Shown here one piece after another: positions 21,001-24,000 of a stretch of DNA of 49,802 bases. The DNA comes from a virus (taxonomy: Duplodnaviria > Heunggongvirae > Uroviricota > Caudoviricetes). The position numbers are program-made. The stretch lies in the IMG/VR virus record IMGVR_UViG_2541047795_000003, positions 1 through 49,802 of that record; one strand, written 5' to 3'. How positions within the stretch are numbered: position 1 is the stretch's first letter; each line of letters starts with the position of its first letter.

Positions 21001-24000
21001 TGGCATTTAAACACTATGATGTTGTCAGGGCGGCGTCGCCGTCAGATCTTGCGGAAAAGCTGACACATAAACTGAAAGAGGGCTGGCAGCCGTTTGGTAG
21101 TCCGGTGGCCATAACCCCTTATACCCTGATGCAGGCGATTGCAGCAGAAGGTGATGTGGTCGTCAGTGGTGCAACTGAGCCGGAGTGGTACTACGTCATC
21201 GTACTGGCCGGGCAATCCAATGCCATGGCTTACGGTGAAGGGCTTCCGCTTCCGGATTCTTACGATGCGCCCCACCCACGCATTAAGCAACTGGCCCGTC
21301 GCAACACAGTGACTCCCGGTGGTAAAGCATGCGCATTTAACGACATCATTCCGGCAGACCACTGCCTGCATGATGTTCAGGATATGAGCGCACTGAATCA
21401 TCCGAAGGCAGACCTGAGCAAAGGGCAGTACGGCTGTGTCGGCCAGGGCTTACATATTGCCAAAAAACTGCTTCCGTATATCCCGAATAACGCGGGGATC
21501 CTGCTGGTACCATGCTGTCGTGGTGGTTCGGCATTCACCCAGGGCGCGGAGGGGACATTCAGTGCGGACACGGGGGCCAGCCAGGATTCGGCACGCTGGG
21601 GTGTGGGTAAACCGTTATATCAGGACCTGATCGCACGCACCAAAGCGGCATTACAGAAGAACCCGAAAAATGTGTTGCTGGCGGTGTGCTGGATGCAGGG
21701 CGAATTTGACATGAGCGCTGCCACCTACGCACAGCAACCGGACCTGTTCACGGCCATGCTGAAGCAGTTCCGTACTGACCTTTCCGGATTTAACGCGCAG
21801 TGCCATGGCGGCAGTGCTGCAGTTGTACCGTGGATTTGTGGCGACACGACGTATTACTGGAAAAACACATACGGCACACAGTATGACTCCGTCTACGGCG
21901 CGTACAAAAACAGGGAGAGCGACAACGTTTTCTTTGTGCCGTTCATGACCGACGGTAACGGCAACAACACGCCCACCAACTTACCGGCAGAAGACCCGGA
22001 TATTGCTGATGCAGGTTATTACGGCGCGCAATCCCGTAGTAATGGTAATTGGGTATCGTCAAATCGTCCGACACATTTCAGTTCATGGGCGCGCAGGGGC
22101 ATTATTTCGGATCGCCTGGCAACCGCTATTCTGAACGCAGTTGGTCGAACCAGCGCCTTCATCAGCGGTACCGCACCGGAGATTAAACCCTCGCCCGGCG
22201 GCGACACGCCATCGGGGCCGTCTGATGGTGACACATCCGTTCGTACAGTCTCCCTGCTGCCGACAGCCGGAGAGGCTGCTGCGCAGGGCTGGACCATCAC
22301 CGGCGGCAGTGTTGCGCTGGAAGATGGTGTGTTTAAGGTTACCAAGCAGAGCAATAAAACCTGGTCCCTGATGCATCCGGTGGATGACGCAGTCTCCCTG
22401 CTGACACGGGGTGGCAGACTGAGCTGTAAGTTTCGACTGTCAGGCGCACTGACCAACAACCAGTTCGGTCTGGGAATTTATCTGTATACCGATGTAGCGT
22501 TACCTGACGTCGTGGCGATGACCGGGACTGGTAACCCGTTCCTGATGTCGTTCTTCACCCAGACCACAGACGGCAAACTGAATCTGATGCATCACAAGAA
22601 AGCCGGAAACACAAAGTTGGGCGAGTTCGGGAATTACAGTAACGACTGGCAGACGCTGGAGCTGGTGTTCACCGCCGGCAGTGCCACGGTTACTCCGAAA
22701 CTGAATGGAGTGGCTGGCCCGGCATTCCAGGTCATAAAAGACAGTCTGACACTGGGGCTGAATGCGCTGACGCTGACGGATATTACCAAAAATGCAGCGT
22801 ATGGCGTCGATATCGGCAGCCTGGTGCTGGAGATAAATGCACCGGCATCATCATAAAAAGTGAGCCAGTCAAATGGAAGGTATCGTTAAACTCACCGGTA
22901 GTGTCAGTGGGTCGTCTGAGATGCCTGCATGAGTTATCAGAGCCATCAGTACTTAACTGGTGGCTTTTTTTATTGTTGTCAGCTTCCGGATAACGGGAGA
23001 CGGGGTATGTACCAGATGGAAAAAATCACAACAGGTGTGTCATACACCACGTCAGCGGTGGGAACGGGCTACTGGTTCCTGCAGTTGCTGGACAGGGTTT
23101 CCCCGTCTCAGTGGGCGGCAATAGGCGTGCTGGGGAGTCTGCTGTTTGGGCTGCTGACATATCTGACTAACCTGTATTTCAAAATCAGAGAGGACCGTCG
23201 TAAGGCGGCACGGGGAGAGTAATTCAATGACTCAAAACTATGAACTGATTGTGAAAGGGATCCGCAATTTTGAGAATAAAGTTACGGTAACTTTAGCGTT
23301 ACGGGACAAAAAACGCTTTGACGGTGAAATTTTTGACCTGGACATCTCGCTGGACCGTGTTGAAGGTGCCGCGCTGGAGTTTTATGAGGCAGCAGCCAGA
23401 AGGAGCATCAGACAGGTCTTCCTGGATGTTGCTGCCGGGTTATGTGAAGGGGATGAGCAGTCGCCGGAAAAGCGCCCCGTAATTTTAGAGGCGCAGGATG
23501 TGTTGATAACCTACAGAGGAAAACTACCGGGAATAATTACTGGTTCTCTGAAGAGTCCGCCGAAATGGTAATTTTACCAGCATATTTTTCATCCAGTAAT
23601 ACAGCAAGCCGCCTGAAAGAGTCTTGTTGTTCCTGAGACCATTTGGGATTGCATGATTCAAACTGGATTGATGCCAGCGTTGATTGCATCTGTTCCCTTG
23701 GAATTGAGAATGCCAGATATGAGAAGGCGACGGTAAGGGTATTCACGTCTTCCCGAAGCCTGGAAATGCTGTCGAGCAACTCCTGTAGAGAAATGGTGTT
23801 ATTGTCCATAAATAATCCTCATGATTGTATTGACCTGTTAGCAGCCTGAGGCAACAGGCTGGAACTGATAAACATATCCAGGGCTCAGAAACCGATAAAT
23901 CCTGATAAATATCCATGAACGCAAAAATCAGATACGGCCTGTCGGCTGCCGTTCTGGCGCTGATTGCCGCTGGTGCGCCTGCGCCTGACATTCTCGACCA

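Follow-up and report, generated by a model that had tools for sequence, protein, structure and literature searches.

In the DNA analyzed here (IMG/VR virus record IMGVR_UViG_2541047795_000003, positions 1 to 49,802; this whole stretch is referred to as the window), two small convergent genes are located between the holin and endolysin genes of a lysis cassette. The plus-strand open reading frame A (ORF-A; 23227..23571) encodes a YdfR/DUF1327 family protein of 114 amino acids, and the minus-strand ORF-B (23537..23809) encodes an acidic protein of 90 amino acids (net charge −5) with a predicted three-helix fold. Here, we propose that enterobacterial lambdoid prophages contain a hypervariable accessory locus and that the pair represents one of its alleles. 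The architecture of this locus is well supported: a late-strand anchor gene, whose last ~10–30 codons are allele-specific, is abutted or overlapped at its 3′ end by a cargo gene on the opposite strand, and the cargo gene is preceded by a promoter-like region and a leader. The locus is mobile among late-operon sites, and ORF-A, its tail, and ORF-B are under selection at the protein level. From these observations, we infer how ORF-B may be expressed, that its product may act as an effector, and that the anchor tail may be its partner; for the reading as a whole, this mechanism included, we estimate a probability of about 0.55. As such, the pair is common, and its members already carry the annotations YdfR and hypothetical protein; the slot organization and the leader RNA were not found in Rfam or in the literature searched.

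The first-pass annotation of the window described the two ORFs as a pair with a 35-bp tail-to-tail overlap and plausible ribosome-binding sites, flanked by an S21-type holin and an endolysin, and this description holds. Both ORFs start with ATG, which is preceded by a Shine–Dalgarno-like sequence ending 7 nt (GGAGAG, ORF-A) or 8 nt (GAGGA, ORF-B) upstream, and the overlap (23537..23571) is evident from the ORF list and the sequence. RefSeq annotates both genes, ORF-A as "YdfR family protein" (WP_000193278.1) and ORF-B as hypothetical (WP_000369851.1). The ratio of nonsynonymous to synonymous substitution rates (dN/dS) between ORF-A variants is 0.14–0.53, indicating purifying selection, and that of ORF-B (Nei–Gojobori) is 0.07–0.36 in all pairs with estimable dS. 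The homologues of ORF-B form 62 clusters, all in Enterobacterales, and in Escherichia, Shigella, and Citrobacter a frame of ~83–90 amino acids is kept down to 58% identity. The dN/dS values and the conservation of frame and length rule out a spurious antisense ORF. Both are conserved genes, and overlaps of 7–47 nt recur in independent lineages.

ORF-A matches Pfam DUF1327 (PF07041) at E = 7.3e-43 and 145.2 bits (cut-off 25) over profile positions 1–91 of 93, and also phrog_406, but has no other Pfam, NCBIfam, or PADLOC match. In its AlphaFold2 (AF2) model, residues 1–73 adopt a β-β-β-α arrangement (strands 5–14, 18–27, and 34–43 and helix 50–73) with predicted local distance difference test (pLDDT) values of 64–84, whereas the C terminus, including the tail module of residues ~84–114, is modeled as strand-rich with low confidence (pLDDT below 50). 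ORF-B matches PHROG 2411 over its full length (E = 9.3e-59, residues 1–90 on profile positions 1–90 of 90) and has no Pfam, NCBIfam, or PADLOC match; a candidate assignment to the NCBIfam anti-silencing Mip family was rejected at 13.7 bits against a cut-off of 50. The AF2 model of ORF-B contains helices at residues 8–35, 38–52, and 59–77 (pLDDT 74), and residues 79–90, which include those encoded in the overlap, are disordered. No significant relative of either protein was found in the PDB by sequence or by model fold. No transmembrane segment was detected in either (the maximum Kyte–Doolittle average over 19 residues is 0.69 for ORF-A and 0.75 for ORF-B, compared with 1.70 for the holin). PHROG places both in the category "unknown function" and their neighbors in "lysis." Neither protein corresponds to a known lysis accessory protein, as judged from the lack of transmembrane segments and of family matches beyond DUF1327. 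Relatives of ORF-B are scarce in general databases: a profile search of 1.84 billion representative proteins returned only 20, single-protein scans for related loci detected close relatives only, and just three phage records contain the gene. The literature searched for ORF-B, its RefSeq accessions, and lysis-cassette and tail morons contained nothing on ORF-B or this locus.

The first-pass annotation had regarded the pair as a moron inserted in the lysis cassette. This stands for ORF-B, which is moron-like, but not for ORF-A. The gene ydfR separates the S21-type holin from the endolysin in K-12 Qin, H-19B, phage 689R5, and about 100 phage records, and its N-terminal-domain DNA was found at 8602 places in 4348 of 5426 complete Escherichia coli genomes (80%). 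ORF-A is therefore a standard member of the S21-type cassette. ORF-B DNA was found at 1338 places in 1207 of the same genomes (22%), or at ~15% of the ydfR places. Alignment with vB_EcoS-689R5 and H-19B shows that ORF-B belongs to an optional segment of ~290 bp (23563..23855, boundaries approximate), which is missing from related cassettes without ORF-B. ORF-B also has a conserved promoter-like region of its own. The junction of this segment lies within the 3′ ends of both genes: the last two codons and the stop codon of ORF-A (K-W-stop) are inside it, and the last ~8 codons and the stop codon of ORF-B are antisense within ydfR sequence common to phages without ORF-B. The YdfR body is conserved over 111 residues ending in ITGSLKTPP, after which alternative ends follow; in cassettes without ORF-B, the protein ends with ...PPESQP or ...PPLA, and another alternative end is an in-frame extension of 60–70 residues (variants of 176 and 183 amino acids).

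Co-occurrence of the two genes at other prophage loci, which the first-pass annotation had brought up, was observed, and the genes form a linked module. Distant relatives of ORF-B (24–40% identity, common core LR..VN.L..AFSYLAF...FES.N) are found upstream of a different holin/endolysin in Citrobacter (loci L022 and L108), between tail genes M and L (L014–L016 and L019–L020), after tail gene I in Yersinia massiliensis (L023), and near terminase genes (L012). In phage contexts, they face the flanking phage genes and overlap the 3′ end of a sense gene by 7–47 nt; a survey of 12 loci, several of them closely similar variants of a single type, showed a tail-to-tail overlap with a sense-strand gene in all but the chromosomal non-phage copy. 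The window YdfR carries the tail motif I-T-G-S-L-K-S-P at residues 104–111 (23536..23559, plus strand), and this motif travels with the ORF-B family: in Citrobacter, Salmonella, Yersinia, and metagenomic phages, the convergent partners of ORF-B relatives end in I-T-G-S-L-x-x-P. The broader pattern [ILF][TIF]G[SD][LI]xxP ends the partners in all overlapping lineages but one, L017, which has only a weak version. Partner C termini similar to that of the window YdfR are GIITGSLKSPPKW, EKITGSLRAPIKL, RIIGSLITPPEL, EKITGSLFAPLSAHPSE, KRLTGDILIPLES, and DQIFGDLKKPPSY. The codons of the motif vary synonymously (ACT/ACC/ACG/ACA, GGT/GGC/GGA, TCT/TCA/TCG, and CTG/TTA/TTG), and therefore selection acts on the protein in the reading frame of the anchor. 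The partner bodies differ from one another; they are DUF1327 domains, a 238-amino acid DUF1327-like protein, or short coiled-coil proteins of the MTLEQRVE type, and the anchor forms also include a fusion of YdfR/DUF1327 with the MTLEQRVE-type coiled coil.

A survey of viral contigs with the leader pattern TCAGCCC-N(20–50)-ATGGCTGATWA gave at least 120 loci (L117–L236), and the counts in this paragraph are those among the matches listed. In 97 loci, a Shine–Dalgarno sequence and an ORF of at least 45 amino acids directly follow the leader. At least 69 distinct small cargo proteins, mostly of 65–99 amino acids, are encoded behind the long form of the leader; the sampled ones have no functional assignment, and one family matches DUF1883. 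A convergent ORF is located nearby in 84 of the 97 loci and overlaps the cargo gene by 4–61 nt in 61. Most of these partners start with MTLEQRVE or carry a DUF1327-like domain. The slot lies between tail genes M and L in 37 loci, beside tail gene I in 14, and in lysis cassettes in three, and the flanks of the remaining 66 were not matched by the small query set. Relative to the surrounding long ORFs, the cargo is antisense in 70 loci, same-sense in nine, and ambiguous in 41. Partner tails correlate with the cargo rather than with the N terminus of the same protein: none of 55 pairs with similar N termini and different cargo had similar tails, compared with 17 of 124 pairs with similar cargo and different N termini (background, 6 of 1991). 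An alternative allele occupies exactly the window's site in L152 and L193, where the order is S21 holin, a 72-amino acid YdfR, a convergent 98-amino acid cargo with the long leader, and lysozyme.

The upstream region of the cargo gene contains a putative promoter and a structured leader. In the window, the putative ORF-B promoter (23865..23899, minus strand) consists of a −35-like TTTATC (23894–23899), a 17-nt spacer, and a −10-like TATGTT (23871–23876), which is located inside the conserved box CCCTGGATATGTT; transcription of ORF-B probably starts near 23863. The conserved boxes TATCAGGrTGTT ... CCCTGGTTAtgGT, followed after 6–7 nt by TCAGCCC, were present upstream of 86 distinct leaders among the matches listed. 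The leader was found by aligning the 125 nt upstream of the ORF-B relatives in the cargo-sense orientation. The long form (~85 nt; L014:3921–4003, L012:3913–4003, and L023:2904–2991 on the plus strand and L110:3380–3472 on the minus strand) has the order promoter boxes, −10-like hexamer 6–7 nt before TCAGCCC, hairpin 1, hairpin 2 with the invariant loop GGAUGGCUGAUUAAC, Shine–Dalgarno sequence, and start codon. In an alignment of 12 sequences, hairpin 1 has eight pairs, six of which show compensatory changes (94% of cells paired), and hairpin 2 has seven pairs, five with compensatory changes. The observed covariation was not attained in any of 500 column shuffles, and slid registers gave far lower values. 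Many G–U pairs are present, which favors the cargo-sense strand as the RNA. The covariation is good but not conclusive evidence for an RNA structure, considering the small sample of related sequences. Among the retrieved loci, a covariance model (R1) built on the leader matched only leader positions and Salmonella remnant loci that had been left out of model building, and no Rfam match was found at the leader positions (eight loci at E ≤ 1) or in window region 22850–24050 (E ≤ 5). The window has a short form, a hairpin CAGCCTG-N6-CAGGCTG (23842..23861, minus strand) at the predicted 5′ end of the ORF-B messenger RNA, positioned like the TCAGCCC-plus-hairpin start of the long leader in other lineages. 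The leader may be a new cis-regulatory RNA. A candidate pseudoknot between the 5′ TCAGCC and the hairpin 2 loop GGCTGA was rejected; it shows no covariation, and the pairing is broken in Citrobacter sequences. As a separate observation, two direct copies of TGGATAT(G)TTTATCAG occur in the ORF-B promoter region (23901–23915 and 23865–23880, minus-strand reading), one of which overlaps the endolysin start codon; they could be a regulator binding site or the trace of a duplication.

Based on these features, we propose the following mechanism for the pair. ORF-B would be transcribed from its own promoter against the late operon, and this facing arrangement, together with the inferred promoter, is why we expect the protein to appear while the late genes are silent, in the lysogen or shortly after infection. 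Q-antiterminated late transcription passing through ORF-B would shut it down by transcriptional collision and by an RNA duplex across the overlap. The sense/antisense interference pointed out in the first-pass annotation is a plausible consequence of the convergent geometry. The ORF-B protein itself would carry out an accessory function, for example, phage exclusion or inhibition of a host or defense factor. The I-T-G-S-L-x-x-P tail of the late protein would be the matching partner, most simply a peptide bound by ORF-B, so that the phage could neutralize or redirect ORF-B, or ORF-B could control YdfR, during the phage's own lytic growth. More tentatively, the anchor tails and cargo proteins of the whole slot may be cognate binding partners in a polymorphic recognition system, with cargo expression controlled by the undescribed structured leader RNA. 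As an example, a lysogen might make cargo that captures or disables the matching late protein when a related phage enters, and this cargo would be turned off once the resident prophage is induced.

For ORF-A, the sole pointer to a function is RNase E binding, which has been reported for the K-12 protein; that protein does not have the window tail. In K-12, the first 72 residues of YdfR mediate binding to the catalytic N-terminal half of RNase E; the protein also co-purifies with RNA, and its overexpression altered few transcripts (PMC13232886). Residues 1–72, in which the RNase E-binding surface of K-12 YdfR is located, are a region shared by the window YdfR. Because YdfR binds RNase E, the ORF-B/YdfR allele could conceivably gate the RNase E-dependent decay of late or lysis transcripts.

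Several observations weigh against the proposed reading. About 85% of the ydfR places are without ORF-B, and H-19B and 689R5 keep the ITGSLKTPP tail without it. Salmonella prophages retain the partner gene and the leader, but only a 3′-end remnant of ORF-B, and solitary ORF-B-like genes occur beside iha, on a plasmid, and in one chromosome. The linkage of tail and cargo is partly trivial because the overlapped codons are the same DNA. Remote homology between the other cargo proteins of the M–L site and ORF-B was not established (hhalign E = 0.24, 0.0047, and 0.28). The window has the short leader only and is not matched by R1. The putative ORF-B promoter agrees with the σ70 consensus at 7 of 12 positions, and a simple σ70 scan did not report the site; this simple scan detected no relevant terminator or strong σ70 promoter.

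The main rival, which we consider improbable but not negligible, is that the module works at the RNA level: transcription from the promoter would run into the late operon in the antisense direction, and the 3′ portion of this RNA, which complements the ydfR end and perhaps also the holin gene, would silence leaky or incoming late or lysis transcripts, thereby protecting the lysogen or excluding kin phages, with the ORF-B protein being secondary. The conservation of the convergent overlap across lineages fits such a role, and the hypervariability could then reflect an arms race acting on the overlap. In the simple scan, no terminator-like site was found downstream of ORF-B before 23048–23034, inside the holin gene; the overlap itself holds only weak inverted repeats. 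In H-19B, which has no cargo, the promoter boxes remain, and TCAGGCC sits immediately next to the antisense end of ydfR. There is also a precedent in STnc6030, an antisense RNA in the late genes of prophage BTP1 that excludes superinfecting BTP1 via its 3′ end (PMC7067206). However, selection on ORF-B acts at the protein level, which argues that RNA does not account for everything. The frame and length of ORF-B are kept in copies outside a phage context, the cargo genes have Shine–Dalgarno sequences and consistently encode 65–99 amino acids, and in 23 of 84 leader loci, among the matches listed, cargo and partner do not overlap, with gaps of up to 111 nt.

Somewhat less probable still is the possibility that the two genes have no functional relationship and that cassettes repeatedly inserted into and deleted from a recombination-prone junction left the overlap and the shared tail behind as by-products. 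The boundaries of the optional segment lie inside both 3′ ends, so that each gene borrows its last codons across the junction. Moreover, the overlap-encoded end of ORF-B is disordered and not conserved, its more divergent relatives stop just before this end, and the tail lengths of other alleles look like read-through to the next stop codon. Against this, synonymous changes have preserved the protein sequence of the tail across lineages in which ORF-B identity is only 38–65%, and the tail is attached to unrelated anchor bodies at different genomic sites. In the M–L lineage, the allele-specific part of the anchor tail is 24 residues long, whereas the overlap is only 7 nt.

A toxin–antitoxin or toxin–immunity pair, in which ORF-B or the YdfR tail would be harmful and the other product would neutralize it, is the least probable alternative with little support (a toxin–immunity function had been suggested in the first-pass annotation), since each gene frequently occurs without the other (at most ydfR places, in the solitary ORF-B copies near iha and on the plasmid, and in Salmonella, where ORF-B is mostly deleted), the genes are convergent rather than in an operon, the tails are only ~10–30 residues long, hydrophobic segments like those of type I toxins are absent from both proteins, no toxin or antitoxin match was found in PADLOC, Pfam, or NCBIfam and no PDB relative by sequence or fold, and overexpressed K-12 YdfR, albeit without this tail, had the minor transcript effects mentioned above. 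The points in its favor are the tight linkage, the joint variation of tail and cargo alleles, the presence of HicAB and sok/hok modules in the same prophage regions, and a layout of constant body, variable C terminus, and adjacent small gene that recalls polymorphic toxin/immunity cassettes. We favor the accessory-slot reading, with ORF-B as the putative effector and the anchor tail as its putative partner.

The 3′ part of ydfR is variable beyond the alleles described above. YdfR genes are highly mosaic past residue ~85–111 (P0091, P0095, and P0119, of 176–183 amino acids; P0156 and P0163; P0174 and P0122), with helical in-frame extensions of 60–70 residues, one variant of which occurs in 463 contigs, and with alternative ends. 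Some YdfR proteins are apparently fused to neighboring reading frames (DUF968-like and Rz1-like). Because of this mosaicism, the sequences suggest that the ydfR 3′ end is a recombination hotspot. The possibility that the 60–70-residue extension is an inverted or related copy of ORF-B was ruled out (hhalign probability 0.1%).

Intact solitary ORF-B-like genes with 57–60% identity were observed amid insertion sequence remnants at L009:2946–3218 (minus strand) and L008:2971–3240 (minus strand); one neighbors iha, an adhesin/siderophore receptor gene, and the other follows an autotransporter gene on a plasmid of 78 kb. The iha-linked copy is accompanied by faint remains of the ydfR 3′ end and the endolysin 5′ end. 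Another solitary gene is in one 6.4-Mb chromosome. The iha-linked copy is present in 60 E. coli genomes, all at least 99% identical, and for this reason these copies are uninformative on selection; their use as a sign of selection outside phages was dropped. In Salmonella prophages, an 83-amino acid DUF1327-like gene (MYKVKVNYILPEGEQVRV...SLDAYEQAAIEQY; L105:3402–3653, plus strand) lies directly upstream of the holin gene and is preceded by the short partner gene with the coiled coil, the ORF-B remnant, and the leader. Because this gene stands apart from the coiled-coil partner, the two modules of the anchor are separate genes in Salmonella. In the Citrobacter freundii prophage L108, a match to the Hfq-binding small RNA isrI (51.7 bits, above the gathering score) was found at 1405–1502 (plus strand), ~1.5 kb upstream of the partner/ORF-B pair.

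The window represents a lambdoid prophage of E. coli, and its region 22800–24500 is 100% identical to several E. coli chromosomes. When the RefSeq annotation is read onto the window, the genes upstream of the cassette are, in order, the Q antiterminator, a DNA methyltransferase, two transfer RNAs (tRNAs), IraM on the minus strand, and a SASA/DUF1737 esterase (20985–22856). These are followed by the S21-type holin, ORF-A, ORF-B, lysozyme, three tiny ORFs, and Rz. The S21-type class II holin (23007..23222, plus strand; a coding sequence of 216 nt in RefSeq) matches PF04971 at 2.3e-32. The endolysin (23915..24448, plus strand), a phage lysozyme with a hydrophobic N terminus annotated as "lysozyme" in RefSeq, matches PF00959 at 1.3e-23. 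Rz is at 25007–25585, and RefSeq annotates its start at 25091. The three tiny hypothetical ORFs between the endolysin and Rz (24741–24872, 24836–24991, and 25003–25089), several of which contain hydrophobic stretches, constitute a second noncanonical insertion in the same cassette (24741–25089). In phiSTEC1575-Stx2k, holin, ydfR, and ORF-B are kept and precede a different downstream lysis module; the three genes thus travel together. Elsewhere in the window, Rfam matches at the gathering score were observed for clustered C4 antisense RNA, isrK, and DicF (5008–5487, minus strand), for the sok antitoxin RNA (14598–14769, plus strand), and for two copies of the small RNA STnc100 (19721–19914 and 20190–20378, plus strand) between the tRNAs and the esterase gene. 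The second STnc100 copy is just upstream of the minus-strand IraM gene (about 20404–20739).

S21-type lysis cassettes routinely carry non-lysis passengers. The gene ydfR is present in four of five sequenced E. coli genomes and ORF-B in about one in five, including ST131-type clinical strains and the B/BL21 laboratory lineage, and neither has an assigned role. The placement in a slot turns an anonymous hypothetical protein into a testable system. It makes dozens of uncharacterized small phage proteins candidates for exclusion or counter-defense, and it yields a candidate new regulatory RNA and a concrete angle on the recently reported interaction of YdfR with RNase E.

The closest counterpart of the window cassette is essQ-ydfR-rrrQ of K-12 Qin, which has the same order of S21-type holin, ydfR, and lysozyme and the same N-terminal domain of YdfR. 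The Qin YdfR is, however, 103 amino acids long, has another C terminus, overlaps rrrQ by 4 nt, and has no antisense gene behind it, whereas the window YdfR has the ITGSLKSPPKW tail and faces ORF-B. ORF-B resembles classical morons such as lambda bor and lom and HK97 gp15 in being a small accessory gene of the late region with a presence/absence pattern, an opposite-strand orientation, and its own promoter-like region. It differs from them in that no terminator was found and in the coupling between the cargo and a late-gene 3′ end. The slot differs in that its structured leader is conserved and that dozens of cargo genes alternate in it, at several places in the genome. In CdiA-CT/CdiI, Rhs, and tail-fiber tip and chaperone systems, a constant N-terminal body carries a swappable C terminus that is co-inherited with an adjacent small gene. 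The likeness of the anchor/cargo slot to these polymorphic cassettes would be one of analogy only: the variable segment of the slot is ~10–30 residues long and contains no toxin or receptor-binding domain, the adjacent gene is convergent, and there is no secretion signal. STnc6030 of Salmonella BTP1 and lambda OOP, which lies opposite the cII 3′ end, would share with the slot the principle of a lysogen or early transcript that converges on a phage gene and overlaps its 3′ end. These transcripts are non-coding and have no sequence or Rfam relationship with the slot, whereas ORF-B and the other cargo genes are protein-coding, with ORF-B under purifying selection.

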